DNA of 63,640 nucleotides from Candidatus Nanoarchaeia archaeon (GTDB taxonomy: Archaea > Nanobdellota > Nanobdellia > Woesearchaeales > UBA583): assembly GCA_050292425.1 (NCBI GenBank), contig JBNKLP010000005.1, positions 1 through 63,640 on the forward strand, given 5' to 3'. Below the pieces are notes generated by a model. That model had not been told where the DNA came from and searched no databases. It saw only the letters and a list, made by a program, of their open reading frames with translations. How positions within the stretch are numbered: the first letter of the stretch is position 1; every line of letters begins with the position of its first letter. This document shows, piece after piece, positions 3,993 to 26,140 of the stretch. The translations under genes were made by a program, and so were the position numbers.

Positions 3993-3993
3993 T

Positions 3994-4833
3994 TTAAATC
4001 TTCCCTCCTTTAATTCTATCTTCTTGCAAACCAAGCTCAGCAAGTGCTTTTTTAACTTCTTCCGGATTTGGAGCTTTCCCATGCCATCTATAATCATTTT
4101 CCATAAAGCTAACTCCCTTGCCTGGAACAGTCTTTGCAATAATTGCAACTGGTTTGTCAAGTTTTTCTGCATACTCCAAAGCAGACTTTATATGAACAAT
4201 ATTATTTCCATCAATATCAATTGCTGCAAATCCAAAAGCAGTCATTTTTGCATGTAATAAATCTAATTTAAGAACATTATCAGTAGGACCATCAATTTGT
4301 ATATTATTCATATCAATAATCACTCTTAAATTAGAAAGATTCTCTTTTGTAGCAAACAAAAAAGCTTCCCAACATTCTCCTTCCTCAATTTCTCCATCTC
4401 CAACAAAACAGAAAACCTTGTTCTTCTTCTCATCTCTCTTCAAAGAAGCAGCAAGACCAACTGCCTGAGAAATCCCCTGTCCAAGTGGACCACCTGAATT
4501 CTCAATACCTGGCAAAAGACCAACATGAGGATGTCCTTGAAGCCTTGAACCTATTTTCCTTAAACTCATTAACTCTTTCTTAGGAAAATAACCATTATGT
4601 GCAAGTGTTGCATACAAAACAGGACAAACATGACCATTAGACAAAAAAACAAAATCCCTATTTTTATCTTGTGGTTTTTTTGGATTATGTTTTAAATAAT
4701 CAAAATACAAAACAGTAAAAATATCTGCAAGACCAAGTGAACCTCCTGGATGTCCTGTTCCTGCCTCTCCAATCATCTTGACAATATCTTTTCTGATATC
4801 ATTTGCAATCAAAGCTAATTCTTGTGTTCTCAT
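3994..4833 (-). CDS. tktN: Transketolase, N-terminal (TPP-binding) subunit
   Basis: GTGHPGGSLGLADI, GDGEIEEGECWEA (TPP-binding GDG motif). Split-subunit arrangement. Confidence 0.9.
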   Translation of the reverse strand: MRTQELALIANDIRKDIVKMIGEAGTGHPGGSLGLADIFTVLYFDYLKHNPKKPQDKNRDFVFLSNGHVCPVLYATLAHNGYFPKKELMSLRKIGSRLQGHPHVGLLPGIENSGGPLGQGISQAVGLAASLKRDEKKNKVFCFVGDGEIEEGECWEAFLFATKENLSNLRVIIDMNNIQIDGPTDNVLKLDLLHAKMTAFGFAAIDIDGNNIVHIKSALEYAEKLDKPVAIIAKTVPGKGVSFMENDYRWHGKAPNPEEVKKALAELGLQEDRIKGGKI

Positions 4834-5668: not shown

Positions 5669-7885
5669 TCACCTATAAGGAATCATCACATCATAACCTG
5701 AATAATCTGCATCCTGGCCATAAGCATTCCACCCAACACATTCAGCAAATAAATCACTATGCAAATAACATGTATTGCCAAACGAATTATCAACAGCAAT
5801 GATATCTCCACCAAAATAATCATTTGACTGACCATAAGCATTATAACCTGTACAATCCAGATTTCCATTTGAAAGTAAAATACAAGTTGTATATCCTCCT
5901 GCAGAAATTCCTATTGCATCACCACCAAGATAATTATTGGATTGACCATAATTATTATTTCCCCAGCAATGTACATTACCAGTATCAAATAATATACAAT
6001 TATGAACTCTTCCACTAATTAATGACATTATATTTCCTCCACTGGTATAATCATTAGATTGTCCTAAAGTATTCCACCCCCAGCAATGAACGTTACCAGA
6101 ACTTAATAATGCACAGTTGTGATTTTGACCACTAGATATCGCAACTGCATCACCTCCAAGATAATCATTAGATTGACCATCATAATTCGAACCCCAGCAA
6201 TGAACGTTACCAGAACTTAATAATGCACAGTTGTGTCTACTTCCACTAGATATCGCAATTGCATCACCACCAGTATAATCACTTGATTGACCAGCATCAT
6301 TTGAACCCCAGCAATGTACATTGCCATTTGAACGCAATGCACAATTATGGTTCATTGCTCCTAAAGCAAGTGAGATTACATCTCCACTATTATAATCATT
6401 AGATTGACCCCAATTATTTCTTCCCCAGCAATGTACATTGCCAGAATTAAGCAAAACACAACTATGGTATTGAGCAGACAATATTGGACTCTCCTTTGCC
6501 CAACTAGGTCCAGAAGAAACCCCAAATTTCTTCAAGGATTTTACTCCCGAACTAGTTTGAATTCTAATCTTTGATGCTGCTGAATCTGTTACATCAACCA
6601 AAACAATTCCATACACATCACTTCCTTTGGAAAACCTAAGTGGTGAAGTTAATGTTCCAAGTGGCTCACATGCAATTGCAATATTTGCAGTTCCATCAAA
6701 CACTCTGTAACCACAATCTATATCAGTTGAAGGTCCAACTAACGTATGTTTTTCAATATAACCTATGCCTCCATTTGAGAGTCCAGTATTTCTTCCAAAT
6801 AAATAAAATTCAGTATCAGAAATAGGTTCATAATCTAAGAAATAAACTATTTGTGAAGTACTGTTTAAATCAATCTCTTCATAAGAATTTGATATTGTAT
6901 CATATAATATAAATTTAATATCTCCTAAAGGAAATACTGATGTTAACATCCCAAAAAATATTTTATTTGAACCTGGTGCTGATTTGAGCTCACATCCATA
7001 AAATCCACAAAAATAATTAGGTAAAATTGGAGAATAATCAACAATATTTCCACTAGTTTTGTCAATTTTAAGTAATCTTTTACCTACCCCAAAAAAATCA
7101 TCTCCTAAAACATACATAAAACCATCAGGCATCAAAAGCAAACTACTCTCCATAATATTAGAAGTTGAAAAATTCCAAACATTATTTCCTGTAATTTTAC
7201 TTCTAGCTTGTAAAGAAACATCTGAGTTCATAAAATCATAACCTTTAATATAAACACTATTACTATCTCCCACTATGTCTTCTGCTACATTTTGATTTGA
7301 AGAAAAACTACTGTGTTTTACCCAAAGAATTATTGCAGGATCAACTTTACTTCTTTTTTCAATTCTCCAAGAAGGTACTGAATAAGTATTATCAACTCCC
7401 ACAATATAAATTCCAGTACTATCTAAATATATATTATTAGGTCTATCATTAAAATTAGCTCCAGTATCAATATTCCAACTATTAATGTAATTTCCATCCA
7501 AGTCTCTTTTTTCTAATCTCCAAGAAGTTTGAAAATATATTGCAGTAAGAACTGTCTGAGGACCAACTAAATAAACTCCAGTATTATCAACAGCAATATC
7601 AGTTAAAGAATCAGGATACCCTGTGAAATCTTCTTGCTGGTCCCACAATTCAATTCCAGAAGATGAAAATTTTCTAAAATCCCATTGATCCATAGATAAA
7701 AAACCACCAGAACTAAATCCAAAATATAAATCTCCATTATATCCTCTTAATGAAAAAGGAGCATATGAATTAGCAAAAGTATCTGCACTATTATCAGTTA
7801 CAACCCAATCAATACTATCATTCAAACTATAAACACTAGCAAAACTCCAAAATACCAAAAGTAAAATCAAAATTCTTCTAAACAT
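5669..7885 (-). CDS. Secreted protein: N-terminal beta-propeller-like region plus seven C-terminal RCC1-like repeats
   Basis: I chose the start at ATG 7885 (MFRRILILLLVFWSFASVYS signal peptide), which avoids overlap with the upstream gene. C-terminal repeats read H-N-C-A-L-L-x-x-G-N-V-H-C-W-G-x-N-x-x-G-Q-S. Confidence 0.75.
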   Translation of the reverse strand: MFRRILILLLVFWSFASVYSLNDSIDWVVTDNSADTFANSYAPFSLRGYNGDLYFGFSSGGFLSMDQWDFRKFSSSGIELWDQQEDFTGYPDSLTDIAVDNTGVYLVGPQTVLTAIYFQTSWRLEKRDLDGNYINSWNIDTGANFNDRPNNIYLDSTGIYIVGVDNTYSVPSWRIEKRSKVDPAIILWVKHSSFSSNQNVAEDIVGDSNSVYIKGYDFMNSDVSLQARSKITGNNVWNFSTSNIMESSLLLMPDGFMYVLGDDFFGVGKRLLKIDKTSGNIVDYSPILPNYFCGFYGCELKSAPGSNKIFFGMLTSVFPLGDIKFILYDTISNSYEEIDLNSTSQIVYFLDYEPISDTEFYLFGRNTGLSNGGIGYIEKHTLVGPSTDIDCGYRVFDGTANIAIACEPLGTLTSPLRFSKGSDVYGIVLVDVTDSAASKIRIQTSSGVKSLKKFGVSSGPSWAKESPILSAQYHSCVLLNSGNVHCWGRNNWGQSNDYNSGDVISLALGAMNHNCALRSNGNVHCWGSNDAGQSSDYTGGDAIAISSGSRHNCALLSSGNVHCWGSNYDGQSNDYLGGDAVAISSGQNHNCALLSSGNVHCWGWNTLGQSNDYTSGGNIMSLISGRVHNCILFDTGNVHCWGNNNYGQSNNYLGGDAIGISAGGYTTCILLSNGNLDCTGYNAYGQSNDYFGGDIIAVDNSFGNTCYLHSDLFAECVGWNAYGQDADYSGYDVMIPYR
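5672..6470 (-). repeat. Seven in-frame tandem repeats of about 114 nt (38 aa) encoding RCC1-like blades
   Basis: An exact 44-mer (ccccagcaatgaacgttaccagaacttaataatgcacagttgtg) occurs at 6078-6121 and 6192-6235, an offset of 114 nt. Confidence 0.8.
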
Positions 7886-7895
7886 TTTTAAGATC

Positions 7896-8834
7896 TTAAG
7901 GAATATCAGTCCTAATCCACATCCTTCCAACTGCAGGTGATGCCGGATCAGATGTCCTAGCCTCAATAATAGAGCCTCCAGCAACTGAATCAACATAACC
8001 CTTTGTTGCAACAGTATCAGCAGAGTCCCCTGAAGTTGTCTGAGTTCTCATTCTTATTTTTCCATTAACATCCAATTTCTGAGTAGGATTATTTGTCCCT
8101 ATTCCTACATTTTCATTATTCTTGATCCATACTGCATCCTTATTATCTCCAAAACCTAAAATAATGTCATTTGTGGGACTATCCTGAGCCCTTATTATAA
8201 AATCTCCCACTGTTGCTGAACCCATAAAATGTCCATTACTTAAAGCTAGACCTATCTGTCCATATTCACTTAATACATTCCCTGTTGACCCAAATAATGT
8301 TGGATGTTCTGTTAAAATCAATGCTGGAGAATTTGTTCCTGCTCCAACTGCTGCCATTCCTCCACCTGGAAAAGTAGATTGAACATGAATTGCTGTGATA
8401 GGAGCATTAATTCCAACCCCAACTTTTCCTGAACTTCTATACACATCTCCCCCATTCACACTCCACACTCCACTTCCTGAAACTGCACTTGTTACATAAC
8501 TCTGAGTGGCTACTGGCTGACTATTCATAAGTAAATTCCCAATCACATTCAAATCCCCATTAATAGTATCACCATCAGCATTCACAAAAAGATTATTTAG
8601 CTCTTCTCCTTGATAATAAGTTGAATCATTAAGATGAACGGTTGTATTAAACACAAAATCTCCTCCTCCTTCATCTCCTCCAAAAATACCTGCCCTTATA
8701 TCCTCAGCACTTGTCCAAACTCCATTAGTATCTGCCCACGCAATACTTCCAAAAACTAGGACAAGCAATAAAAAAATATTTGTCCCAAAGTTAAAATTTG
8801 TTTTGAAATTATCAGAAACCATAACAACTTTCAA
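7896..8834 (-). CDS. Secreted tail-fibre-like protein
   Basis: Signal peptide (IFLLLVLVFGSIAWA). Two VAT[QK][SG]YV motifs and NVGIGTNNPTQKLDVNGKI. The listed start is TTG at 8834. The first ATG is at 8822. Confidence 0.55.
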   Translation of the reverse strand: MKVVMVSDNFKTNFNFGTNIFLLLVLVFGSIAWADTNGVWTSAEDIRAGIFGGDEGGGDFVFNTTVHLNDSTYYQGEELNNLFVNADGDTINGDLNVIGNLLMNSQPVATQSYVTSAVSGSGVWSVNGGDVYRSSGKVGVGINAPITAIHVQSTFPGGGMAAVGAGTNSPALILTEHPTLFGSTGNVLSEYGQIGLALSNGHFMGSATVGDFIIRAQDSPTNDIILGFGDNKDAVWIKNNENVGIGTNNPTQKLDVNGKIRMRTQTTSGDSADTVATKGYVDSVAGGSIIEARTSDPASPAVGRMWIRTDIP

Positions 8835-10092: not shown

Positions 10093-10665
10093 ATGAAAAT
10101 AATTTCAAAAAAAAACATCAAAAATCATGAACAATTCTACCTTGATGAAATATTAAATGGAAAAATCTTCATCTATCCAACTGATACAATTTATGGAATA
10201 GGATGTGTGGCAACAAACAAAAATTCAATTCAAAAAATAAAACAAATCAAACAAAGAGACTCATCAAAACCCCTCTCAATTATTGCACCATCAAAGAACT
10301 GGATTCAAACCAACTTTAAAATACTTGAAAAACACAAATCATATTTTAATAAACTTCCAGGACCCTTAACATTAATATTTGAAAAAAAAGAAAACTCAAA
10401 TCTCTCAAAAGAAATATCACCTACAAACTCAATTGGAATAAGAATTCCAGATCATTGGATTTCAAATCTAATTGAAAAAACTAAAAAACCATTCATAACA
10501 ACATCAATTAATATTTCTGGAGAACCAAACATAACTCAAATCACTCAACTATCTCAACAAATTACAAACAAAGTGGACTATATAATAGATGAAGGAGAAT
10601 TAAATAACAAACCATCAACAATTATTGACTTAACAAAAGAAGAACCAATTATATTAAGAAAATAA
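10093..10665 (+). CDS. tsaC: L-threonylcarbamoyladenylate synthase, short TsaC/YrdC/Sua5 form
   Basis: YPTDTIYGIGC, KPLSII, GIRIP, TSINISGEP motifs. 190 aa. Confidence 0.85.
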   Translation: MKIISKKNIKNHEQFYLDEILNGKIFIYPTDTIYGIGCVATNKNSIQKIKQIKQRDSSKPLSIIAPSKNWIQTNFKILEKHKSYFNKLPGPLTLIFEKKENSNLSKEISPTNSIGIRIPDHWISNLIEKTKKPFITTSINISGEPNITQITQLSQQITNKVDYIIDEGELNNKPSTIIDLTKEEPIILRK

Positions 10666-10666
10666 A

Positions 10667-11464
10667 TTACTTTTTCTTCTTTGAATCCACTTCCTTAAAT
10701 CTTCTCATCTCCTTTCTAATCTCTCTGAAAAGCAATACAACAAGTAAGAAGTTAATCAAAATCCAGAACACAACTGAACCTCTTATATCTCCAATCTTTA
10801 TTGGAAGATATGAATACTCAAAAGCAATAGTATTTGGAGTTTCCTTATCAACATTCCAATATGCTGTTTTATCATCTGAATCAATACTCTCAGGTTCCAA
10901 ACTCAAATAAGTATAATGATAACCACTAGGTAACTTCATTTTCAAATTTCCTTTTTCAATGGGAATTGTTGTATACTCTTTTATAGGAACCTCTAAATTC
11001 TTAAAAAACAGTCCTGAAGGATCATAAATTATTTTATACTCCAAATTAATCTGATACTCAAAACCTGGCAAAACTGGAGTAAATATCTCAAGTGCAACAA
11101 TAACATAATCTGCTGTCTCTAAAACTCTATGAGAAATATCTTTTCCATACCTATCAGTAACTTTAATATTCTCAACTTCAATTGCTGAAACACTATTATT
11201 CACAACCTTGTTAATCTTGAATTCCACACTTCCTGGCACTATTCCCACAGTGTGTATATTCTTCAAAGTCATCTCTTTTTTAACTTCAATTGTATTATCC
11301 TTGTTTATAGTAAGTTCTGTATTATAATTTGAAAAAACTTCAACAGCAGCATATGAAGACACACACATCAAAAAAAACAAAAACAAAATCATAACTGGCC
11401 TTAACAAGGATTTCATATAAAAATCTTTAAATCTTAAATATTTAAATCTTTGGCTAACACTCAT
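10667..11464 (-). CDS. Signal-peptide protein with a C-terminal TM anchor and basic tail
   Basis: N-terminal hydrophobic segment (VMILFLFFLMCVSSYAA). C-terminal VVFWILINFLLVVLLF then REIRKEMRRFKEVDSKKKK. Starts 12 nt after the giant gene's stop. Confidence 0.55.
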   Translation of the reverse strand: MSVSQRFKYLRFKDFYMKSLLRPVMILFLFFLMCVSSYAAVEVFSNYNTELTINKDNTIEVKKEMTLKNIHTVGIVPGSVEFKINKVVNNSVSAIEVENIKVTDRYGKDISHRVLETADYVIVALEIFTPVLPGFEYQINLEYKIIYDPSGLFFKNLEVPIKEYTTIPIEKGNLKMKLPSGYHYTYLSLEPESIDSDDKTAYWNVDKETPNTIAFEYSYLPIKIGDIRGSVVFWILINFLLVVLLFREIRKEMRRFKEVDSKKKK

Positions 11465-11476
11465 AGTAACAACCCC

Positions 11477-14400
11477 TCACTTCTTCCTCTCCAAAGGATC
11501 AAATCCAGTTAAAATCATATTATTATAATCAAACTCTCCTAGTGAAGACAAATTAAAATTAACATCCCACATATTTGAAGAGTTCCATTCTCCTGAATAA
11601 TTCAAAAGAACTCCCTCATCCAGAATTAATGAAGAAATATTAAACTGATGCAAAGTTCCATTTACTCCACCAACATCAACCAAATCAATACTCTCATTCA
11701 AAGTAGAATACCTAGAAGAAGTTGAAAAAGTAAAGCCTGATGACAAATTAAACTCATCAGAAACAAATGCATAAACAAACAAACCACTATTAATTGGACT
11801 CTGATACTCACCCAAATTCCTCAAACTCAAACTAACTCCAAACAAGCCTTCTCCAAACTTAACAATACTTCTATCAAATCTCAATTTCCTTGACTCAAAC
11901 AATTCTTCCAAAATCCTAAGTGTCTTATCCAAACTAAGACCATTTACATTTGGATTTAAATTTGAAACTGCATATCCTGCAACCAAATATTCACTATCAA
12001 TTTCACCTGTTCCATTAACTGTAAAAGTTACAACTGTGCTCTCCCCATTATTCAAACTAACCTGTCTCAAATTAGTATTTGTAACCCACATTGGAACTGT
12101 ACTTGAATCATTCACCAAAACCCTTCCAAAATAAGTTAAATTCAAATCATCAACTGCAGCATCTGCGCTCCATCCTGTAACTCCATCATATCTTATTCTA
12201 GTTGCAATGTCCCCAATATAAGAACTCAAATTAATATATGTATTCAAATAAGGATCTGTTTGTAATGTTTGTTGCTGGCCTGTTCTCGACCATACATCAT
12301 TCACCCAACTACTTCCATCAAACACATCCAAATGCAAAGTTCCAACATTAGTTCCAAACATATGATACCAAAAATCAAAACCTGCATTTTCCTTATCATT
12401 TGAAAAAGTAGGTCCTGTTAAAATTGCAGAAGTATCAGCACCTTGACAAGCATTACCAGATGCTTCAACATATCCATACCAACCAAATGCTGTTTTCAAA
12501 GTATTATCAATAGTAGGACCTGTTCCTGTTGAAGGAGTTCCTCCCTGATCACGTATCCAATCACAACTTCCTCCATCAATACTCCACTGACCAAACCCAA
12601 GTTCCAAATCTTCAAAATATGAAATATAATCATACAAATAAAAACTCACATTAACCAATCCACAATCTCCTCCCTCGCAACTCACATTAAAACTCACATT
12701 AACAAGTTGATTTTGATAAACATCAATGGTAGGCTCACTTCCCAAAAAATCAACAACAATATTTGGGAACACAACATCAACACTCCAATTAACTCCATTA
12801 TCTAACCAATAAGAATTCTCAACCATATCTTCCACATAAACATTCCAGCTATAATTACCATTCTTTCTAAAATTATATGTGAAATTAAGAAGTGAAGTTG
12901 AAAGACCACTCAAATCAATAGTCTTTGTTCCATCCAAATTCATATTCTCATCCCAAACATAAAGTTTTGCAAAACCTAACTCATTATTATCCGAAACATT
13001 AGCAACAAAATTAACTTGACTAGTTGAAAAAAATGTTCCACTAATAGGAAAAATCTTGTAACCAGTTGGAGGAACAACCTCGGCAATCGTCAAATTAATC
13101 TGCGATGTGTCAACACCAGAACCAAGACCTGAATTAATATCACTAGAAACAAAGGCCGAAAAACTATCTAAAACATTTCCTGTTGCATTAATATAAAAAG
13201 TCACAACTACGCTCTCATTAATATTCAAATTAACAGTATTCGAATTTGTAGTATTAGTCCAAAAAGGACTATCTGCTGAGTTATTCATAACATAAAAAAT
13301 ATTCTCCCATACAGAGATATTTAAATCATCAACGGCAATATCACTTCCCCAATTAGTTCCTCTCTCTCCGACAATTCTAAATTGACCATTTCCACTAAAA
13401 TCAAAATTAAAACTATTATTATACCAAATATCTCCTTGATCCAAACTCAAATTCCACAAGTTATACCAAGAACTTCCATCATTAAAATCAACATAAATAC
13501 TTCCTAAATCAGGTCCAAACATATGATACCAAAAATAAAAATTAACAGTCCCTGATGATGAAAAAATTGGACTTAAAAAATATGCCTGATCACCATTGGC
13601 AACAGGATTAGATGTCTCAAAATAAGTATACCAACCAGTTGCACTGCCTAAAGTATGATCAACACTTGGACCTGTTCCTGCAGAACCTGTAGGTCCCTGA
13701 TTCAAAGTCCAATCCTGCTGGTCTCCAATAGCAGTATTAGTCCAACTACCTAGAGTTCCAGTCTCAAAATCTTCAAAATAAACATAAGTTTGTGTCAACT
13801 CCTCATAAAGCAAAGTCACATTAACCAATCCACAATTACCAACATGGCAGCTAACATTAACTTGAAGAGGTCTAAAATTATACTGATTAATATAAAAAGG
13901 CGAAGAAACATTCCCTACATAATCAATTGTCAAATAAGGAAAAATTACTGTCAAACTCCAGTTGTTACCCAAAAACACATCATTACCAAAAGTATCATTA
14001 ATTTCAATATTCCACAAATAATCTCCTGCCATACTGAAATTGTAATCAATACTAAATATTGAACTAATATTACCTTGCAAATCCATAACTACACTATCAT
14101 AATATACTCCTTCACTTGTCCAAATCCAAAGCTTTGCACTATCAAGTCCCATATTATCAGTTGCACTTGTACTAAAACTCAGATTATTAAAGTTAAATGA
14201 CGAACCATTAACTGGAGAAATCTTGACTCCACTTGGTACTTGCAAATCTGAAATAGTAAAATTAAAAACAGAACCTGCTGCCCCAGAACCAAGACCTGAA
14301 TTTATATCACTAGAAGCATAAGATCTTATGCTCTCATAAAGACTGCCTGTTGCATTAACATTAAAACTAACAACTATGCTCTCATTTACATTCAAATTAA

Positions 14401-17400
14401 TTGTTTGTGGAATACTTGAATTACTCCAAAAAGGAATACTTGAAGTAGTTGGAAAATCCAAAAACTGATACTCAACAACACTTATATTTAAATCATCAAC
14501 TGCAATATCACTTCCCCAGTTAGTACCTCTCTCACCAATAAACCTAAGTTGCGTATTCCCATTATAATCAAAACTTACAACTCTATTGTACCAAACATCT
14601 CCTTGATCTCCACTAATAGACCAAAGTGTTGACCACACACTTCCATTCAAAAACTCAACCTGTAAAGTTCCCAAATCAGGACCAAGCATATGATACCAAA
14701 AATCAAAAACAACAGTTCCAGATGATGAAAAAACAGGACTTACTAAATATGCCTGATCTCCATTGGCAACAGGATTGGATGTCTCAAAATATGTATACCA
14801 ACCAGTTGCACTGCCCAAAGTATGATCAACACTTGGACCTGTTCCTGCAGAAGGAGTTCCTCCTTGATCCAGAGTCCAATCCTGCTGATCGCCAATAGCA
14901 GTATTAGTCCAACTACCTAAAGTTCCAGTCTCAAAATCTTCAAAATAATTGTAAGTTGTAACAAGTTGCTCAGAAAGCAGACTAACATCAACAGAACCAC
15001 AATTACCAATATGACAACTAATATTCACAAAAATTTGTCCATTTTGAGTTCCATCAACATAAAAAGGATCACTAAATCCATTAACATACTCCAAAGTCAG
15101 ATAAGGAAAAATTACTGTTAAAGTCCAATTACTACCTAAAAAAACACTATTTCCAAAAGTATCATTAACCTCAATATTCCACATATAATCTCCAGCCATG
15201 CTAAAATTATAATCCATATTAAATAAACTACTAATTGCACCACCTAAATCCAAAATCTTAGAATCATAAAAACTTCCATCTAAATTCCAAACCCATAACT
15301 TTGCGCTATCAAGTCCAAAATTATCATTTGCACTTGCACTAAAACTCATATTATTCACAGTAAAAGATGAGCCATTAATTGGAGAATTTTTGCTTCCAGA
15401 AGGAGGCTGCAAATCAGCAATAATAATATGCTTATCATTACTCTTTGATGCAATAGTATAATCACTCTGAGCTTTTGCCATCGAAAAAATTGGGATTGTA
15501 TCTCCAACATTTCCTGTTGCATTAACATTAAAACTCACTAATTGGGATTGTCCTTGATTCAGATTTACACTCAGCATAGCATCTCCCATTATCCACAATG
15601 GAGAACTACTTGAATTAAGAATCTGTTTTCCATTCGCATAAATTCTCAAATCATCAATTGCAGCATCTGCGCTCCACCCAGTAACACCATCATATCTTAT
15701 CCTAACTTGAATATCTCCTGAATATGAACTCAAATCCACTGCAGCCTGCAAATAAGGATCTGTCTGTGTTGCCTGCTGAGCTCCAGTAACTGACCATACA
15801 TCATTAATCCAACTACTGCCGTCAAACACATCAAGATGAAGTGTACCAAGTGCAGTTCCAATCATATGATACCAAAAACTAACATTAGTTGTCTCTACCC
15901 CTGCACTAAATACAGAACTTGTAAGAACTGCTTGAGTATCTGCTCCTTGACAAGCATTACCTGATGCTTCAACATATGCATACCATCCTGTTGCTGTTCC
16001 AAGTGTATTATCAATAGTAGGTCCAGTATTTGCTGAAGGAGTTCCCCCCTGATCACGTACCCATGTACAACTTCCACCATCTGCTGTCCAATTTCCAAAA
16101 CCAACTTCCAAATCTTCCAAATAATCATAAATGAAATTTCTTCCTAAACTCACATCAATAGCACCACAATTTCCAGTATTATCACAACTCACATTAAGCA
16201 AAACTGTATCTGCACTATTCTTCTCAATAAGTAAGTCTGAATAATCATCAAAATCATCATTAAACACATATCCCGGACCAACTCCCATATAAGCACTAAA
16301 ATGAGTTACTTCAAACCAGACATGTGTATCATTCTGCTCAAAACCAAAACCTGAATCCTGCCAGAAAGTAACACAACTTCCATTAACAAAATCAGAACAG
16401 GTCAAAATACTTCCAATTCTCAAATCTGAAGATTTTGACAAAATAATTGCAGTCTTTGAGAAATTTAAAGCTTCAACATTAAGAATTGGCGTTAATATAC
16501 CACTCCCCTCATCACTTGAAATTCCACTATCCAAAACCTCCATCTTTGAAAAGCTTCTAACATCCAAATCATCAAACTTTAATCTTACATTCTCTTTGGC
16601 TACAGTTACATTTACAACATTCAACTTTGATTTGCTCTTTGAAAAACCTTTAATCTCTACTCCAAGATTGTTTTCATAATCACTAACTTCAACAGACTTC
16701 AAAACATTCAAATCAAACTTATTCTCAAAACCAAAAATATCTCTTATTACAATATTTTCATTTGCATCATAAATTATTCCTCTTAATTTAATATTTCTTT
16801 TTTCATTCCTATTATGTTCTTCCTTTTTATCCTCAAACTTATTTTTTTTATCATCAACAAATTCAAAACCTTTTGGTAATATTATATAATTCAAAAAATC
16901 TTCATCAATGACTTCAATTTCAAATTCAAACTCTTCTCCTATAACTATGCTTCTTGGGACTTCCTTAAAACTCACAGTTCTAATATCTTCTACTCTTTTA
17001 GAAATATACAAATTTCCAAACTCACATTTACCTACATCTTCAATTTCAAATTCAGAATCTTCACAAAATTTTCTTGAAAAAAAATAATAGTTTTCTATTC
17101 CTTCAGGAACTTTATTCAAATTACTTCTTTTTTGAAAATAACTTTCAAAATCAAAAACTCCTCCATCATTTCTAATCCTATTCTCCTTAATAATTTCAAA
17201 AAACATATCTTCAAAATCAAAACTACTTTCATAATCCGCAAAATCATTCGAATCAATTTGAGTTCCATCATAAAAAATTGCCTCAAACTCTTTAAATAAA
17301 TCTCCAGACTCTGAATACACTCTTACTTCATAAGTATCAAGCAAAATCTCCCTATCTACAACAAAAGAAAATTGACAGCTCCCTATACAAGTAACATCAA

Positions 17401-17944
17401 ACACACTAATAGATTCAGGAGAAGTCTTTGGTGAAATCTCAAAATAATAAAATTCTGGATCATATGAATCAGTATCAATAAAACCATTTACATTTAAAGT
17501 TCCATTCTTAATATAATACTTATCCTTCAAATGAACATCATAAACTGCTTTTGGTTGTTCCAAACTAAATTCCAACTCCTTCTTATAATAAGTATTCTTG
17601 TTCTTTGCAGTAATTAGAATACTATAATCATCAAAAAATACTTTCTTCAAAGGCACATAAACACTACAACTTTTCTCACAAGAAACTTCCTTTTCAGAAA
17701 CAACCAAACTATCCTGAGCATAAATGATTTCAATATCAAACTCTTGCTCTCCTCCAAAATCATTGTCAATCATAAGATGAACTCCATAATCTGAATTCTC
17801 CTGCACACCTGAACTCACAACATAAGCATCAAAAAATCCTGTTGATGAAGTATATCTTATTGCATCCACATTAACACTAAAAAACAAAATAGCAAAAACT
17901 AAAAACACTCCAAAAACAAACATATTCTTAGTAATTTTTGCCAT
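11477..17944 (-). CDS. Giant secreted surface protein (about 2155 aa) with four MAM-like domains in ~390-aa super-repeats
   Basis: Signal peptide MAKITKNMFVFGVFLVFAILFFSVNVDA from ATG 17944 (the listed TTG at 17965 is less likely). Four copies of FE..G..W......DW......TPS..TGP..DHT.G...GWY.Y.E.S......A.L.SP.F......F.FWYHM.G...G.L.V......W..LW...G.QG..W........SDIA[VI]DDL. Confidence 0.85.
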   Translation of the reverse strand: MAKITKNMFVFGVFLVFAILFFSVNVDAIRYTSSTGFFDAYVVSSGVQENSDYGVHLMIDNDFGGEQEFDIEIIYAQDSLVVSEKEVSCEKSCSVYVPLKKVFFDDYSILITAKNKNTYYKKELEFSLEQPKAVYDVHLKDKYYIKNGTLNVNGFIDTDSYDPEFYYFEISPKTSPESISVFDVTCIGSCQFSFVVDREILLDTYEVRVYSESGDLFKEFEAIFYDGTQIDSNDFADYESSFDFEDMFFEIIKENRIRNDGGVFDFESYFQKRSNLNKVPEGIENYYFFSRKFCEDSEFEIEDVGKCEFGNLYISKRVEDIRTVSFKEVPRSIVIGEEFEFEIEVIDEDFLNYIILPKGFEFVDDKKNKFEDKKEEHNRNEKRNIKLRGIIYDANENIVIRDIFGFENKFDLNVLKSVEVSDYENNLGVEIKGFSKSKSKLNVVNVTVAKENVRLKFDDLDVRSFSKMEVLDSGISSDEGSGILTPILNVEALNFSKTAIILSKSSDLRIGSILTCSDFVNGSCVTFWQDSGFGFEQNDTHVWFEVTHFSAYMGVGPGYVFNDDFDDYSDLLIEKNSADTVLLNVSCDNTGNCGAIDVSLGRNFIYDYLEDLEVGFGNWTADGGSCTWVRDQGGTPSANTGPTIDNTLGTATGWYAYVEASGNACQGADTQAVLTSSVFSAGVETTNVSFWYHMIGTALGTLHLDVFDGSSWINDVWSVTGAQQATQTDPYLQAAVDLSSYSGDIQVRIRYDGVTGWSADAAIDDLRIYANGKQILNSSSSPLWIMGDAMLSVNLNQGQSQLVSFNVNATGNVGDTIPIFSMAKAQSDYTIASKSNDKHIIIADLQPPSGSKNSPINGSSFTVNNMSFSASANDNFGLDSAKLWVWNLDGSFYDSKILDLGGAISSLFNMDYNFSMAGDYMWNIEVNDTFGNSVFLGSNWTLTVIFPYLTLEYVNGFSDPFYVDGTQNGQIFVNISCHIGNCGSVDVSLLSEQLVTTYNYFEDFETGTLGSWTNTAIGDQQDWTLDQGGTPSAGTGPSVDHTLGSATGWYTYFETSNPVANGDQAYLVSPVFSSSGTVVFDFWYHMLGPDLGTLQVEFLNGSVWSTLWSISGDQGDVWYNRVVSFDYNGNTQLRFIGERGTNWGSDIAVDDLNISVVEYQFLDFPTTSSIPFWSNSSIPQTINLNVNESIVVSFNVNATGSLYESIRSYASSDINSGLGSGAAGSVFNFTISDLQVPSGVKISPVNGSSFNFNNLSFSTSATDNMGLDSAKLWIWTSEGVYYDSVVMDLQGNISSIFSIDYNFSMAGDYLWNIEINDTFGNDVFLGNNWSLTVIFPYLTIDYVGNVSSPFYINQYNFRPLQVNVSCHVGNCGLVNVTLLYEELTQTYVYFEDFETGTLGSWTNTAIGDQQDWTLNQGPTGSAGTGPSVDHTLGSATGWYTYFETSNPVANGDQAYFLSPIFSSSGTVNFYFWYHMFGPDLGSIYVDFNDGSSWYNLWNLSLDQGDIWYNNSFNFDFSGNGQFRIVGERGTNWGSDIAVDDLNISVWENIFYVMNNSADSPFWTNTTNSNTVNLNINESVVVTFYINATGNVLDSFSAFVSSDINSGLGSGVDTSQINLTIAEVVPPTGYKIFPISGTFFSTSQVNFVANVSDNNELGFAKLYVWDENMNLDGTKTIDLSGLSTSLLNFTYNFRKNGNYSWNVYVEDMVENSYWLDNGVNWSVDVVFPNIVVDFLGSEPTIDVYQNQLVNVSFNVSCEGGDCGLVNVSFYLYDYISYFEDLELGFGQWSIDGGSCDWIRDQGGTPSTGTGPTIDNTLKTAFGWYGYVEASGNACQGADTSAILTGPTFSNDKENAGFDFWYHMFGTNVGTLHLDVFDGSSWVNDVWSRTGQQQTLQTDPYLNTYINLSSYIGDIATRIRYDGVTGWSADAAVDDLNLTYFGRVLVNDSSTVPMWVTNTNLRQVSLNNGESTVVTFTVNGTGEIDSEYLVAGYAVSNLNPNVNGLSLDKTLRILEELFESRKLRFDRSIVKFGEGLFGVSLSLRNLGEYQSPINSGLFVYAFVSDEFNLSSGFTFSTSSRYSTLNESIDLVDVGGVNGTLHQFNISSLILDEGVLLNYSGEWNSSNMWDVNFNLSSLGEFDYNNMILTGFDPLERKK
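12134..16126 (-). repeat. Four tandem ~1167-1170-nt coding super-repeats (SC-x3-5-C sandwich / MAM / Ig-like / Big-like modules)
   Basis: MAM-like segments lie at about 15638-16126, 14477-14950, 13310-13783 and 12134-12622. The inner two copies are near-identical at nucleotide level with an offset of exactly 1167 nt (cctgctg at 14881 vs 13714). Confidence 0.85.
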
Positions 17945-17971
17945 TTTAAGTTGTATTAAATACAACTTAAA
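17945..17971 (-). promoter_or_regulatory. 27-nt perfect palindrome (13-bp arms, 1-nt centre) abutting the giant gene's ATG
   Basis: tttaagttgtatt-a-aatacaacttaaa, read directly. The ATG occupies 17942-17944. A TATA-like ATTATATAAAT lies about 40 nt upstream. Confidence 0.6.
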
Positions 17972-18567: not shown

Positions 18568-20385
18568 TTAGAAAAGAACTAACAACAAACCAACAGCAGC
18601 AGCAATACCTACCAAGAAGTATTCAACCTTAGCTGAAAGCACACCATAAACTGAATCAACAGTAAGAGCTTTTGTAGCTCCATATTCTCCAACATTCAAA
18701 GGATCGACACCAGTTAGGAATAAGTCTTCAAAATCGAACTCTCCTGATCCTGATACATTATATTCAACAGTCCAAGTATTATTTACATTCTCAGCACCAC
18801 CCCAAGCATCTAAAGATGAATTAAATGGATTACTGTTTCCTATAATTCCAAACTGATGCATTGTACCATTATAAGTAGGATCATTCAAAGCTTGTGATGC
18901 ATTTGTTGTATTATACCAAGTTGAACTTGAAAACACAAAAGGACTTGTCAAACTAAATGTATTAGGTATGAAATTATAAACCATAATTGCCTGATCAGAT
19001 GGTGTTGGTGATGTTCCAAGGTTTGAAACCTTAATGAAAACACTATAATTTCCTTCTGCAAGTCTTGTAATATTTCTTGTAATCTTAATCCAGTAACCAG
19101 TAGCAAGATAAAGCTCTTTCACATAAACTGAATTATTTCCATAAGTAACACTTCTGTTAGTCAACTGAAGCCCATCATTAATAATATAACTATTCATATC
19201 CATCCAAACAATAGGTGATGCACTAAATGTATAATTAAATATCCATTCATTTCCTACATTATCCCAAGTTCCTGTTGATGAATTAATAATCATATTTGCA
19301 GGATATGAAGTATTTAAAGAACTTCCAGAAATTGAATCATTATCAATTGAAGAAGGATTTGTAGATCCTGCATTTCTAACACTCACCCAAAAACTCACCT
19401 GAGTCAAATTAACATCCACATTTGAAGGATTTGAAACATTTCCTGTAATAATCCAAGTTGCATTATCTCCTGTTAAAGTATTATTCATATATTTCTCAAA
19501 ACTAAGCTCCAAATCTAAAAGAGCATCAATGTCTGTTAGTGCAACTCTTGAAACTGTTGTATTAATAGCATAAGTAATTGTTGAATTAATCATCTGATAT
19601 GTATTTGCCACAGTAACTCCTGAAGGCGTATTTACATCGTATGAAATATCTGTAACATTTCCTGAATTAAAACAACTTCCTCCCCACAAATTCCAATTAA
19701 TTGTTCTATTATCAGCAGTAAAAGTTGCATTAGCTGCATCAGCTCCTGCCATAGTTGAATTATCATAAGTAAAATTAAAATATGAACCACTCACATTAAT
19801 TGTCAAAGCATTCTGAACAACATTAATATTGTAAATACAATTCACAGGATATGTAGTGGAGTTCATTGTATTTTGAACATTATCAGTCACAGTAATTGGA
19901 AGTCCTGCAAATATTTTTGTATCACTATACCCTGTTGTGAAATTCAACGGAGGAGCTACGTTTGTAGTATTAACATTATAAGTAAATGTTGTATTCAAAC
20001 CTGCACCCAAATCAGGAATAGTCAAAACTGCATAATCCCCAGTTACATTAACCAAAGTAACATAACCTTGTGCTCCTGCTGAAAAAGCAAGACCATAAAT
20101 ATCAGCAATTGGACTAATTGTCAAAACCAGATTCTCAACTGATTCGCTCGCATGAGTATTATCAACAAAAATTTGTCCACTAACTGTGTACAAAGATCTA
20201 TTCTCATTAGCATCCACATACAAACCTCCTCCAGCAGAAAGAGGGTCATAAGTTACAACTTCATTAACATATTCACTAAACTGAACATCAACAATATTCG
20301 CAGCAGCATTAACACATGCAACTGCAGACATCATAACCAGCATAGCAAGTAATAGTTTTTTTAGTGCACCAAAAACATATACCAT
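18568..20385 (-). CDS. Sequon-dense surface (S-layer-like) glycoprotein candidate with a C-terminal TM anchor
   Basis: Signal peptide (LLLAMLVMMSAVACVNA). About 32 N-x-S/T sequons by eye in 605 aa. The C-terminal VGIAAAVGLLLVLF helix ends the protein. Confidence 0.6.
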   Translation of the reverse strand: MVYVFGALKKLLLAMLVMMSAVACVNAAANIVDVQFSEYVNEVVTYDPLSAGGGLYVDANENRSLYTVSGQIFVDNTHASESVENLVLTISPIADIYGLAFSAGAQGYVTLVNVTGDYAVLTIPDLGAGLNTTFTYNVNTTNVAPPLNFTTGYSDTKIFAGLPITVTDNVQNTMNSTTYPVNCIYNINVVQNALTINVSGSYFNFTYDNSTMAGADAANATFTADNRTINWNLWGGSCFNSGNVTDISYDVNTPSGVTVANTYQMINSTITYAINTTVSRVALTDIDALLDLELSFEKYMNNTLTGDNATWIITGNVSNPSNVDVNLTQVSFWVSVRNAGSTNPSSIDNDSISGSSLNTSYPANMIINSSTGTWDNVGNEWIFNYTFSASPIVWMDMNSYIINDGLQLTNRSVTYGNNSVYVKELYLATGYWIKITRNITRLAEGNYSVFIKVSNLGTSPTPSDQAIMVYNFIPNTFSLTSPFVFSSSTWYNTTNASQALNDPTYNGTMHQFGIIGNSNPFNSSLDAWGGAENVNNTWTVEYNVSGSGEFDFEDLFLTGVDPLNVGEYGATKALTVDSVYGVLSAKVEYFLVGIAAAVGLLLVLF

Positions 20386-20440: not shown

Positions 20441-20884
20441 TCACTCTAATTGGTGAATTTTCTCAATTCTCCTCTGATGTCTTTCAATCCCACTAAATTT
20501 TTCCATCAAAAAAGTACTTACAATATCTTTGTATTTAGAATGATCAAACTCCCTTGCTCTAAGTGTCAAAACATTGGCATCATTATCATACCTTGCCATC
20601 TTTGCAGAATATTCATCATATGCAAAAGCTGCTCTAATTCCCTCAATCTTATTGGCAGCAATTTGCATTCCAGTCCCACTCCCACAAATCAAAATTCCAA
20701 AACTCCCATTATGTTTCATAACCTCATCGCAAACAAGCTTTGCATAAACAGGATAATCTACCTTGTCAGTAGGACTATGTGTTCCTAAATCAACTACCTC
20801 TAAACCTAGTGAAGCAAGTATTCCAGTAACTTCTCCTTTAGCTTCAAAACCTGCCCTGTCTGAACCTATGAAAACTTTTGCCAT
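20441..20884 (-). CDS. rpiB: Ribose-5-phosphate isomerase B
   Basis: IGSDRAGFEAK, ICGSGTGMQIAANK, NDANVLTLRAR motifs. 147 aa. Confidence 0.9.
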   Translation of the reverse strand: MAKVFIGSDRAGFEAKGEVTGILASLGLEVVDLGTHSPTDKVDYPVYAKLVCDEVMKHNGSFGILICGSGTGMQIAANKIEGIRAAFAYDEYSAKMARYDNDANVLTLRAREFDHSKYKDIVSTFLMEKFSGIERHQRRIEKIHQLE

Positions 20885-22836: not shown

Positions 22837-23523
22837 TTATCTATTGTGTTTATGCAACTCCTCCTGATATGCATTCCAGTCTTTCTCAAACTGAGCCATC
22901 CCCTTATCTGTTAATGGATTGTAATATAACTTTTGAAAAACCTTGTAAGGCATAGTTGCAATATCTGCTCCTATTTGACTACACTCTGTAACATGAGATG
23001 AGGATCTTATACTTGCTGCCAAAATATTAGTCTTAAAACCATACCTATCAAACAAAGCTCTAATATCTCTTACAAGTTCAAGTCCATCCCAACCTTCATC
23101 ATCAACTCTTCCTACAAAAGGACTCACACACCAAGCACCTGCCTTTGCAGCAAGAAGAGCTTGATTAGGTGAAAAACACAAAGTAACATTACATCTTATA
23201 CTCTCTGATGCCATAATGCTAACTGCTTTCAAACCCTCAACTGTCAAAGGAACCTTCACTAAAATATGCTTGTCCATCTTTGCTAGTTTTCTTCCCTGCT
23301 CAACCATTCTCTCTGCAGAATCTGTACTTGTTACCTCTGCACTCACAGTAAAATTATCATTTCCTGTCTTCTTAAACAAAGAAACAATCTCTTTAATCTC
23401 TGTTTTGAAATCTCTACCCTCCTTAGCAATAAGCGTTGGATTCGTAGTTACTCCATCAAGAAGTCTTGTTGCAATTCCTTCTCGAATTTCTTCAACATTA
23501 CCTGTATCTAAATATATTTTCAT
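22837..23523 (-). CDS. tal: Transaldolase (short TalC/FSA type)
   Basis: MKIYLDTGNVEEI, TTNPTLIAKEG, ILVKVPLT (Schiff-base Lys context). I chose the start at ATG 23523 rather than the listed 23592. Confidence 0.9.
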   Translation of the reverse strand: MKIYLDTGNVEEIREGIATRLLDGVTTNPTLIAKEGRDFKTEIKEIVSLFKKTGNDNFTVSAEVTSTDSAERMVEQGRKLAKMDKHILVKVPLTVEGLKAVSIMASESIRCNVTLCFSPNQALLAAKAGAWCVSPFVGRVDDEGWDGLELVRDIRALFDRYGFKTNILAASIRSSSHVTECSQIGADIATMPYKVFQKLYYNPLTDKGMAQFEKDWNAYQEELHKHNR

Positions 23524-23621
23524 ACCTGTTTTGAAAAAAAATTCTTTATATACATTTGTTATTATAAAACAGAGAAAAAAGAAACCAAACATTTAAAATT
23601 ATAAAAAACCATAAACATATT

Positions 23622-23975
23622 ATGAGATGGTTTCTAAGATCCAAAATTCACAATGCAACCGTAACTGAGGCAAACTTGAAATATATTGGAAGTATTACCA
23701 TTGACAAGAATTTAATGGAAAAATCAGAACTTCTTCCTGGAGAAAAAGTTTTAATTGTTGACAATACAAATGGTGCTAGACTTGAAACTTATGTTATTGA
23801 AGGAAAAGAAAACTCAGGAACAATTTGCATGAATGGAGCTGCTGCCCATTTAATAAAAAAAGGAGATGAAATCATCATAATGGGTTTTGAACTATCAGAC
23901 AAACCCATTAAACCAAAAAGCATACTTGTTGATAAGAAAAACAAATTTGTAAAATATTTAAAAGACAAATATTAA
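23622..23975 (+). CDS. panD: Aspartate 1-decarboxylase (pyruvoyl type)
   Basis: [28 protein letters not shown] contains the G-S self-cleavage site. 117 aa. Confidence 0.9.
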
Positions 23976-23983
23976 ATTCCAAA

Positions 23984-24676
23984 TTACTTCAAGTCTGTAA
24001 AAATATAACTCTCCTTGCAACCCCTAACAGTTTTACAAGGAACTTCACAAACACTCATATTATCATCTCTAAACAAATCATAAGCATTCTGTTTCTCTTC
24101 TCCCATAAAAAACATATAACAACACTTGCATCTCTCAATCATCTTTCTTGACATTGATATTCTTCTAGGAGGAGGTTTTGGTGAATCTTCAACCAAAATA
24201 AAACCTTGACCCGGATTTTTAACAGAATTATGGTCTGGAAACAAAGAACATGTATGCCCATCAGGTCCTGCACCAAAAAGTCCAATATCAACATTTTTAA
24301 CTTTCTTATTATAATCTTCATGAGGTTTTTCACTCGTATAATCAATTGGAATAATCTGCTCTTCCAAAATAAATTCTTTTTCAATCAACTCACCTAAAAA
24401 AGCAACTTTAGCTGCTTTGTAATTTGAATCATTATCGTCAAGAGGAACAACTCTCTCATCTGCAAAGCAAAAAATCATTTTCTCCCAAAACTCTTTGTCA
24501 AGTTTAGCTGCATTTTCTTTTAATGCATAATAAAAACTAAGTATTGAACGTCCTCCAGATAAAGCAACATAAATTTTATCTTTTGTTTTTGCAAGTTCCC
24601 TAACCTTTGTAAAAAAAATATTAACCCCCTCAAGTCCCAACTTATTCTCATTCTTATCATAAAAAACCTGCTCCAT
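23984..24676 (-). CDS. pgl: 6-phosphogluconolactonase
   Basis: ALSGGRS, FADERVVP, GLFGAGPDGHTCSLFP motifs. Confidence 0.85.
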   Translation of the reverse strand: MEQVFYDKNENKLGLEGVNIFFTKVRELAKTKDKIYVALSGGRSILSFYYALKENAAKLDKEFWEKMIFCFADERVVPLDDNDSNYKAAKVAFLGELIEKEFILEEQIIPIDYTSEKPHEDYNKKVKNVDIGLFGAGPDGHTCSLFPDHNSVKNPGQGFILVEDSPKPPPRRISMSRKMIERCKCCYMFFMGEEKQNAYDLFRDDNMSVCEVPCKTVRGCKESYIFTDLK

Positions 24677-24682
24677 TTTTAA

Positions 24683-26140
24683 TCAAAAATTATGCCACTT
24701 TCTTCCATCTTTTTCAAGCAATCTCTCTGCAGCATCAGGACCTCTCCCTCCAGATTCATAGAAATGAATCATAGGACAATTATCTCTGCAATCAACCAGA
24801 TTATCAACTATTTTCCATGACTCCTGAACTCCATCCCACCTTGAAAATAAAGTATGGTCTCCTTTCATAATCTCATTCAACAACACCTCATAACCCTCTG
24901 GAGCATTACTCTTAAAATATTCATCATGATTAAACTTTGCCTGAATAGGATCAATTGTAAAACCATTTCCATTTGAAGGACTTTTAATATTAAACTGCAT
25001 ATCAATTCCCTCATTTGGTTGAACTTCAATAATCAACTTATTAGTTTCTAAATCAGATTGATGATTATACAAAATACTTGGAATTTTCTTAAACTCAATT
25101 ACAACTGTTGTTCCCTTTTTTTTCATTCTCTTTCCAGTCCTCAAATAAAATGGCACTCCTGTCCATCTCCAATTGTCAACTTCAAGTTTCATTGCCACAT
25201 AAGTCTCAGTTTTTGACTCTTCACTAACACCCTCTTCCTGACGATAACCAACTACTTTCTTTCCTTCTATTTCTCCTTCCTTATACTGACCAAAAACAAC
25301 ATTTTCCTGCCAATTTCCATAGAGATTCTTAATTGATGAAAAAACCTTCATCTTTTCATCTCGAATAAAATCAGCATCAAGCTTTACAGGTGGTTCCATT
25401 GCAATTAATGAAACCATCTTAAACAAATGATTTTGAATCATATCTCTAAGTGCACCAGAGCTTTCATAATATCTCCCTCTCTTTTCAACTCCTAGTGACT
25501 CAAAAGCAGTAATCTGAACATTATCAATAAATTTATAGTTCCAAAGAGGCTCTAAAAAATAATTTGCAAACCTCAAAACTAATAAATTCTGAACTGCGTC
25601 CTTTCCCAAATAATGGTCAATTCTGTAAACCTGCTCCTCTTTAAAAGCAGACATTATTTTGTCATTAAGTTCTCTTGCACTTGCCAAATCAGAACCAAAA
25701 GGCTTCTCAAAAACAATCTTCTTCTTAGTATGATTATCTTCATTAAGTCCTACTCTTCTCAAATTGTCAATAACTGGAAAAAACACTTTCTGTGGCAAGG
25801 CAAGATAAAAAACAATTTGAGTTTCAAAACCATCAGAAAGTTCATCAATTCTAGCTCTCAAATAATCATAATCCTCAGCTCCATCAAACTCAACTTTTGA
25901 ATAAATTACTCTATCAACAAATTTTTCTTCAACTTCTCCAACCTTTCCAAACTCAACCAGATGAGATCTTACATCCTCTTTAAACTCTTCATCAGTTTTA
26001 GTTTTCCTTCCAATTCCAAGCACTTCAAACTCCTTTGTAACCTGTCCTTTTTTAAACAAATTGTAAAATGCTGGAACGAGCTTTCTTTTAGTCAAATCTC
26101 CTGTCGCTCCAAACAAAACAAAAATTGTCTTCTTTTCCAT
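24683..26140 (-). CDS. zwf: Glucose-6-phosphate 1-dehydrogenase
   Basis: FGATGDLTKRKL (NADP site), YRIDHYLGKD active-site signature. 485 aa. Confidence 0.95.
   Translation of the reverse strand: MEKKTIFVLFGATGDLTKRKLVPAFYNLFKKGQVTKEFEVLGIGRKTKTDEEFKEDVRSHLVEFGKVGEVEEKFVDRVIYSKVEFDGAEDYDYLRARIDELSDGFETQIVFYLALPQKVFFPVIDNLRRVGLNEDNHTKKKIVFEKPFGSDLASARELNDKIMSAFKEEQVYRIDHYLGKDAVQNLLVLRFANYFLEPLWNYKFIDNVQITAFESLGVEKRGRYYESSGALRDMIQNHLFKMVSLIAMEPPVKLDADFIRDEKMKVFSSIKNLYGNWQENVVFGQYKEGEIEGKKVVGYRQEEGVSEESKTETYVAMKLEVDNWRWTGVPFYLRTGKRMKKKGTTVVIEFKKIPSILYNHQSDLETNKLIIEVQPNEGIDMQFNIKSPSNGNGFTIDPIQAKFNHDEYFKSNAPEGYEVLLNEIMKGDHTLFSRWDGVQESWKIVDNLVDCRDNCPMIHFYESGGRGPDAAERLLEKDGRKWHNF

Follow-up and report, generated by a model that had tools for sequence, protein, structure and literature searches.

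The stretch of DNA analysed here (the window) comprises 63,640 nucleotides of contig JBNKLP010000005.1 of a Candidatus Nanoarchaeia archaeon (GCA_050292425.1), and its largest open reading frame (ORF), located on the minus strand, encodes a giant protein with four domains of the MAM family; the runner-up ORF encodes 870 aa. The giant gene can be read from TTG (11477..17965, 2162 aa) or from the ATG of 'MAKITKN' (11477..17944, 2155 aa). The ATG is favoured as the start site because of the placement of a TATA-like 'atattatataaa' ~40-50 nt 5' of it, and residues are numbered accordingly; the original prediction, made from the sequence alone, counted from the TTG (i.e., +7). A Kyte-Doolittle scan detected a single hydrophobic segment, the N-terminal one, which resembles a signal peptide with a predicted cleavage site (Table 1), and no other transmembrane (TM) segment, and the protein contains 57 N-x-S/T sequons vs 31.2±4.8 in shuffled sequences. 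Taken together, the signal-peptide-like segment, the lack of any other TM segment and the sequon enrichment point to an extracellular location of the giant protein.

The occurrence of four MAM domains, as originally predicted, was confirmed with the Pfam profile PF00629, which matched the whole protein with E=1.3e-75 in four stretches spaced by 392, 389 and 384 aa and scored every copy, when these were scanned singly, above the gathering score of 26.4 bits (hidden Markov model (HMM) envelopes and scores in Table 1). Searches of the PDB sequences with the second copy (MAM2) or with a four-copy profile returned MAM domains only, namely those of MDGA1, insect scavenger receptor-C, enteropeptidase and neuropilins, with E values of 1e-10 to 1e-20 for these metazoan domains. 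All the solved structures matched in this way are animal proteins, and no prokaryotic MAM structure was retrieved in the PDB sequence searches. The fold was examined in an AlphaFold2 (AF2) model of residues 946-1345, which cover a sandwich module, MAM2, and the Ig-like and Big-like modules that follow it. The model was all-beta, with a mean predicted local distance difference test score (pLDDT) of 77 that reached 85-96 over most of the MAM core and ~70-88 in the sandwich module ahead of MAM2. When the PDB was searched with Foldseek, the modelled MAM2 superposed on the isolated MAM domains 8yt7 (TM-score 0.72, 2.8 Å, 34% identity) and 5l73 (TM-score 0.67, 2.7 Å), with further matches to enteropeptidase, RPTPmu, PTPRK and meprins, in agreement with the jelly-roll fold that had been anticipated. 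The four domains are members of the Pfam MAM family, as evidenced by the profile for all four and by the fold for one copy (MAM2).

The MAM domains follow the order A-B-B-A with a period of ~389 aa, which bears out the proposed arrangement in super-repeats of ~390 aa: the outer copies (MAM1 and MAM4, A-type) share 72.7% identity and the inner ones (MAM2 and MAM3, B-type) 79%, and the identity of A-type vs B-type domains is 41-45%. The accompanying modules described in the original prediction were all found in the sequence, i.e., an SC-x4-5-CG motif ahead of every MAM, an Ig-like module ('NLN.GES.VV.F.VNATG') after every MAM and a Big-like module ('PPSG..SP.NGS...GLDSAKLW.W') after the first three only. 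The latter scored below threshold with Pfam Big_7 in the giant protein (E=0.024) and 65 bits at the homologous site of one of its relatives (P0046, see below), and judging from its sequence it is a relative of Big_7. Linker 3 showed a match to Pfam PKD with E=0.019.

Table 1. Features of the giant-protein gene and its two neighbours in the window.
Feature	Residues	Coordinates	Strand	Remarks
Giant-protein coding sequence	1-2155 (from ATG)	11477..17944	-	Stop TGA 11477-11479; 239 kDa, pI 4.1
Signal peptide	1-28	17861..17944	-	K-rich n-region, hydrophobic core; predicted cleavage between '...VNVDA' and 'IR'
Family head	29-562	16259..17860	-	Head HMM 612 bits
Beta-sandwich module 1	563-604	16133..16258	-	'NVSCDNTGNCG'; immediately ahead of MAM1
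MAM1, A-type	605-774	15623..16132	-	Paired Cys in 'GGSCTW' and 'NACQG'; 55.2 bits
Linker 1	775-996	14957..15622	-	Ig-like + Big_7-like + SC-x4-CG sandwich 2
MAM2, B-type	997-1160	14465..14956	-	No Cys; 96.9 bits; AF2 model
Linker 2	1161-1385	13790..14464	-	Ig-like + Big-like + sandwich 3; all-beta in model
MAM3, B-type	1386-1549	13298..13789	-	No Cys; 81.0 bits
Linker 3	1550-1769	12638..13297	-	Ig-like + diverged Big/PKD-like module + sandwich 4
MAM4, A-type	1770-1942	12119..12637	-	Paired Cys; 48.8 bits
Ig-like module 4 + family tail	1943-2015 + ~2016-2152	11480..12118	-	Ends '...GEFDYNNMILTGFDPLERKK'
605-aa neighbour	1-605	18568..20385	-	Signal peptide, sequon-rich ectodomain, tail domain (aa 420-561), linker, TM 582-605
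265-aa neighbour (3' of giant)	1-265	10667..11464	-	Signal peptide + C-terminal TM

The N-terminal 570 residues had been viewed as an acidic region with no recognisable domains. Their acidity (D+E 18.6%, K+R 10.4%) was corroborated and no relative of this region was found in Pfam, NCBIfam or the PDB sequences (the whole giant protein had no match in NCBIfam either); however, the region is not featureless and corresponds to a conserved family head. It contains two ~97-aa modules with C-x3-C hairpins (C89/C93 and C186/C190), an acidic variable middle and the motif C516..C524..W528..QN..F..HFSAY, and an alignment of eight members has 26 invariant columns that include the two C-x3-C pairs and the HFSAY motif. 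This family emerged when residues 1-1200 were compared exhaustively, by phmmer, with 1.84 billion cluster representatives; the matches numbered 7118 at a threshold of E≤1e-3, of which 941 reached E≤1e-30. The best 149 non-self matches were sorted by a simple sequence heuristic into 84 metazoan-like (Cys-rich, with a 'C.FE' start), 39 prokaryote-like (median of five MAMs, maximum 11), 16 unclear and ten that are relatives of the giant protein (P0044, P0036, P0046, P0032, P0107, P0061, P0086, P0064, P0038 and P0137).

These relatives are 1800-3100 aa long, except for P0137, a fragment of 899 aa. Eight of the ten are co-linear with the N-terminal 560 residues of the giant protein (the alignment with P0044 spans residues 26-1166 of the query), and P0038 and P0137 match the tail HMM only. 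This tail HMM scores 84 bits in the giant protein and matches the last ~150 residues in eight of the ten relatives, the exceptions being P0086 and P0107. In the AF2 model the tail is a beta-sandwich (pLDDT 75-88); its consensus ends in ...G[LFM][DE], after which the giant protein, the long form of P0086 and the 605-aa neighbour continue with 'PLERKK', and the hydrophobicity scan detected no membrane anchor after it. According to Pfam, the section that separates head from tail contains, in the relatives, one or two MAM domains and a variable succession of Laminin_G_3, DUF2341 and Big domains. The number of MAM domains within the family ranges from one to four, the four of the giant protein being the maximum seen, and Laminin_G_3, present in P0044 and P0107, was not detected by Pfam in the giant protein. 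A metagenome scan with the head alignment added two short fragments only (L036 and L037), and a word-index homologue search with the whole giant protein retrieved only a MAM protein of Bacteroidia, its N/S-rich sequence flooding the candidates; the same kind of search with the head alignment retrieved none. All eight window proteins that are present in the protein collection are singleton clusters there, and one further housekeeping ORF is absent from it. Based on these comparisons, the giant protein is not the isolated oddity that it had appeared to be and belongs to a family of giant archaeal proteins that share head and tail and in which the middle cassettes (MAM, LamG, DUF2341, Big) are swapped; no description of such a head-tail family was found in the literature searched.

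The history of the A-B-B-A arrangement can be approached from the linkers and the relatives. Linkers 1 and 2 are 55% identical although each follows a different MAM subtype, and linker 3 shares ~39-40% identity with both. Both subtypes occur in relatives, in the order B then A in P0032 and A then B in P0044. Tandem duplication of the whole super-repeat was considered as the origin of the arrangement and rejected, since linker and MAM similarities are discordant and both subtypes pre-exist. Because the subtypes are present in relatives and the linkers do not follow the MAM domains, the pattern is better explained by within-gene duplication of two pre-existing subtypes combined with cassette exchange. 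The single copies were compared by BLASTP and in a neighbour-joining (NJ) tree of 81 MAM domains. MAM1 and MAM4 are mutual best matches (NJ support 69), followed by A-type domains of the family (51-64%), those of two further archaeal loci, L029 and L012 (43-48%), and a bacterial-like protein (43%). MAM2 and MAM3 are likewise mutual best matches (support 99), followed by the B-type domain of P0032 (58%; support 82 for the three together), beyond which they are about equally close to a flavobacterial MAM (45%) and to metazoan-like MAMs (~44%). The deeper A and B clades have weak support (26-30). Both subtypes appear to be old, with each of them duplicated within the gene of the giant protein.

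The cysteines distinguish the two subtypes. Only the outer copies contain Cys, as had been stated; the idea that these were kept from metazoan MAMs did not survive the comparison of 1050 MAM domains aligned to one model. In domains of the archaeal family and loci, the pair located in 'GGSC.W' and 'N.CQG' occurs as both residues or neither and never as one, with 14 domains having both (one of them counted twice, as P0064 and L003) and six having neither, while the first Cys is present in none of 974 non-archaeal MAM domains and the second alone in 25. These column counts indicate that the A-type Cys are the signature of an archaeal MAM subtype rather than retained metazoan Cys; the A subtype, with paired Cys that probably form a disulfide, appears to be specific to archaea and the B subtype Cys-free. 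The canonical N-terminal 'C.FE' Cys motif of metazoan MAMs is missing from all four domains. The classical MAM, as reportedly defined by Beckmann and Bork in 1993, is said to have four conserved Cys forming two intradomain disulfides. Two disulfides have been described in meprin beta's MAM domain (PMC9848320). Against this four-Cys definition, MAM2 and MAM3 have no Cys and MAM1 and MAM4 have two. Since bacterial MAMs also lack the canonical Cys, the Cys criterion separates prokaryotic from metazoan MAMs and leaves the Pfam membership unaffected.

The view of MAM as an animal module, which made its presence in an archaeon seem unusual, was not sustained. MAM domains have been on record in bacteria since 2007 (PMC1821046), and a MAM-pattern scan of GTDB species genomes returned 34 loci, 31 of them bacterial (mostly Bacteroidota) and three in other archaeal metagenome-assembled genomes (MAGs). 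Among the latter, L003 encodes P0064, L012, a fragment, includes an A-type MAM, and L029 (50% GC) encodes a protein of >3150 aa with MAM-A, Ig and Big modules like those of the giant protein. The ORF of L029 (3058-12507, plus strand), which is cut by the end of the locus, has one Cys-pair A-type MAM followed by Ig-like and Big-like modules and no family head, suggesting that the MAM-A/Ig/Big cassette travels between otherwise different giant proteins. In the NJ tree, eukaryote-like MAMs are split from all prokaryotic ones with support of 70 and all the archaeal domains are placed on the prokaryotic side. By sequence, then, the MAM domains of the giant protein group with prokaryotic and not with metazoan MAMs, with no sign of a direct animal source.

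These data bear on the possibility that the gene is an artefact or foreign DNA, i.e., a chimera produced by the assembly of repeats, contamination from a bacterium or an animal, or the result of a recent direct transfer from an animal. The gene is certainly repetitive, with a DNA repeat spacing of 1167 nt (3504 nt between the outer copies), and the B-type MAMs, ~44% identical to metazoan-like domains, are as close to these as to bacterial ones. However, the repeat copies are only 65-88% identical in DNA and lack long exact repeats, and an identical 2155-aa protein with the same neighbours is present on a contig of GCA_050291385.1, an assembly whose independence from that of the window is not established; an assembly chimera is unlikely. 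Along the whole window the GC content (0.29-0.35) and the coding-strand skew stay uniform, other archaeal MAGs contain homologues that share head, tail and synteny, and all the archaeal MAMs lie on the prokaryotic side of the NJ split. Moreover, the contig is archaeal, as originally assumed: it encodes aCPSF1/FttA (equivalog TIGR03675, 758 bits vs a cut-off of 580), L1, and an L10 of the P0 type, in which the archaeal/eukaryotic insertion and the acidic tail are present. An artefactual or foreign origin is largely refuted and is regarded as very improbable.

With respect to the neighbourhood, the giant gene is flanked by genes for two proteins with predicted signal peptides and C-terminal TM segments (Table 1), neither of which had a match in Pfam, NCBIfam or the PDB sequences. 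The 605-aa protein, encoded 5' of the giant gene, matches the tail HMM with 46 bits. The ATG of the 265-aa protein lies 12 nt past the stop of the giant gene and is preceded by GAGGGG; given this gap and this motif, both genes are probably co-transcribed. Locus L003 holds homologues of all three genes in another order, with identities of 37-42% for the modules of the giant protein, 39% for the ~600-aa protein (603 aa, full length) and 48% for the 265-aa protein, and in it the gene of the ~600-aa protein also adjoins the homologue of the giant gene. The two orphan membrane proteins of L003 are located at 10238-12049 and 12114-12524. The clustering is seen in the window and in L003, the two loci with usable context, a number too small for a rule. 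L003 (CAYGPK010000006.1, 29% GC) is labelled 'uncultured Methanosarcinales archaeon', and either this label or the binning of the contig is doubtful; an origin in Methanosarcinales was rejected in view of the 29% GC of L003 and of the window's oxidative pentose-phosphate set and lack of methanogenesis genes.

The conserved gene cluster and the tail domain shared with the sequon-rich, membrane-anchored ~600-aa neighbour, possibly the main envelope protein, would also be compatible with a structural role of the giant protein in the envelope, for example as a sheath or spacer associated with the S-layer, in which the MAM domains would provide homophilic or lattice contacts instead of binding another cell. 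Oligomerisation or homophilic contacts are frequent functions of animal MAMs (PMC9848320), which is in line with this idea. Nevertheless, a constant head and tail with freely swapped middle cassettes is typical of variable adhesins and not of lattice proteins, the MAM count varies from one to four within the family, and the PDB sequence and tail fold searches revealed no similarity to any solved S-layer protein. A structural role in the envelope is considered unlikely.

Regarding the host contig, the GC skew is -0.3 to -0.5 at minus-strand genes and near zero or positive at plus-strand genes (1-2000, 32001-34000); it reflects a G-over-C bias of the coding strand and is not a replication signal. 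A bacterial-type MetK with N, M and C domains (58051-59214, minus strand) and DNA gyrase A (31715-34153, plus strand) are encoded on the otherwise archaeal contig, which suggests a lineage with many bacterial acquisitions. Pentose-phosphate genes surround the giant gene on the minus strand (2086-4833, 20441-20884 and 22837-28266) and form a complete set, including glucokinase, a split transketolase, RpiB, transaldolase, 6-phosphogluconolactonase, G6PD and 6PGD, as well as an odd fusion of ribulose-phosphate 3-epimerase to a dual-specificity phosphatase domain (Rpe-DSPc, 26205-27344). The oxidative branch of this pathway is uncommon in archaea. A few genes 3' of the giant gene, the stretch 5669-8011 (minus strand) encodes a protein of 780 aa with six RCC1 (beta-propeller) repeats, possibly a further surface or interaction protein. 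Many orphan membrane proteins are present in the window. The low GC, the bacterial-type genes (MetK, GyrA, glucokinase and oxidative pentose-phosphate enzymes) and the many orphan membrane proteins are features that we take to be DPANN-like, and the host is probably an archaeon with a DPANN-like lifestyle.

The abundance of genes for sugar-phosphate metabolism in the window raises the question of whether the giant protein could be a secreted glycan-binding scaffold for nutrient capture, with the MAM jelly-rolls acting like carbohydrate-binding modules (CBMs). The fold class of MAM is that of the ConA-like lectins/glucanases, lower-ranked fold matches of the model were to CBM22, GH101 and xanthanase accessory modules, a weak resemblance to CBM3 is seen in the tail, and Laminin_G_3 occurs in relatives. 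Still, the CBM matches are weak, neither the giant protein nor six relatives scanned contain a catalytic domain, and the ORFs scanned up to ~10 kb to each side of the gene included no glycoside hydrolase or transporter, so that such a scaffold appears quite improbable.

Altogether, the evidence favours a modular adhesin: the giant protein is probably a Sec-exported, heavily N-glycosylated, anchorless extracellular adhesin of a low-GC archaeon. It would be built as a string of ~20 beta-sandwich modules, exported by Sec, glycosylated and displayed as an extended fibre, in which, by analogy with animal proteins, the MAM modules may bind protein or glycan on a partner or host cell or on particles. 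The tail may hold the giant protein on the producer cell by binding the membrane-anchored 605-aa paralogue or the envelope, and the swapping of cassettes may tune the binding specificity. Giant surface proteins and ConA/LamG proteins have been proposed as factors of host attachment or contact in DPANN archaea (PMC10266531; PMC7414124), and an adhesion role fits these published candidates. Some points weigh against this interpretation. The term adhesion is carried over from animal MAM proteins and from the domain context; docking by the tail is deduced from a shared domain and from gene adjacency in two loci; and a fold search of the PDB with the tail model gave no significant match, the best one being CBM3-like with E=2.6e-3 and a low TM-score.

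As a more speculative and rather doubtful extension of the modular adhesin, the head-tail proteins might constitute an undescribed class of archaeal host-attachment fibres, which would be anchorless, paired through the tail with a membrane-anchored paralogue of the same gene cluster, and equipped with rapidly exchanged lectin-fold cassettes that would set the specificity, including an archaeal MAM with a disulfide that diverged from bacterial and animal forms long ago. In small host-dependent archaea, candidate adhesins for the recognition and holding of partners have mostly been nominated from their domain content. The locus supplies a defined family in which head and tail are conserved and the MAM/LamG cassettes exchangeable, together with a conserved gene neighbourhood pointing to a possible docking partner, and the paired Cys of the A-type domains mark an archaeal MAM lineage. 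None of this overturns the current view of MAM evolution: MAMs of prokaryotes had been described before, and a direct connection with animals is not apparent from the tree. Rather than an animal-like oddity, the giant protein represents a good candidate for an adhesin.

Compared with known systems, the metazoan MAMs of MDGA1 (5oj2), Spodoptera scavenger receptor-C (8yt7), enteropeptidase (8h3s), neuropilin-1 (5l73), RPTPmu (2c9a/2v5y) and meprins (4gwm) belong to the same sequence family and have the same jelly-roll fold (TM-scores of 0.67-0.72), and like the MAM-Ig segment of RPTPmu and PTPRK the giant protein presents extracellular MAM domains in tandem with Ig-like modules. Unlike the animal proteins, it lacks the 'C.FE' Cys, is encoded by an archaeon and has a head and a tail that animals do not have. 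The 'cleaved adhesin' domains K2 and K3 of the gingipains of Porphyromonas gingivalis (3km5, 3m1h) are similar repeated jelly-roll adhesin modules (TMt 0.61-0.63); however, they belong to another sequence family, are attached to a protease and are bacterial.

The giant proteins of DPANN archaea, i.e., the nanohaloarchaeal SPEARE proteins and the LamG proteins of Undinarchaeota (arCOG07813), resemble the giant protein in being encoded by the largest gene of their neighbourhood and in combining a Sec signal with serial Ig-like and lectin-fold domains. The lectin-fold module differs, being MAM here vs LamG in the arCOG07813 proteins, and relatives of the giant protein carry Laminin_G_3. SPEARE-type proteins are defined by a size >5000 aa, a membrane anchor and a VirB4/TraG-like ATPase domain (PMC10266531). 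With 2155 aa vs 6000-9400 aa, no TM segment beyond the signal peptide and no such ATPase domain, membership of the giant protein in this type was rejected.

A further parallel is found in the multi-MAM surface proteins of bacteria, mostly Bacteroidota, such as P0002 (from a Bacteroidia MAG, with FN3, MAM and Por_Secre_tail domains) and those encoded in loci of Hwangdonia, Hyunsoonleella and Saprospiraceae. Like the giant protein, they have Cys-poor MAM domains, which are 35-47% identical to its own, and are secreted proteins of great length with multiple MAM copies and many beta-sandwich modules. In contrast to the cargo of the type IX secretion system (T9SS) in Bacteroidota, Pfam detected no Por_Secre_tail/T9SS sorting domain (PF18962) in the giant protein, which ends in its own family tail, and its membership in the T9SS cargo was rejected for the lack of this domain. 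Head and tail also differ from those of the bacterial proteins, and the A-type Cys pair was found in no bacterial MAM examined. With these differences, the most fitting description of the giant protein is that of an archaeal variant of the multi-MAM surface proteins of prokaryotes.

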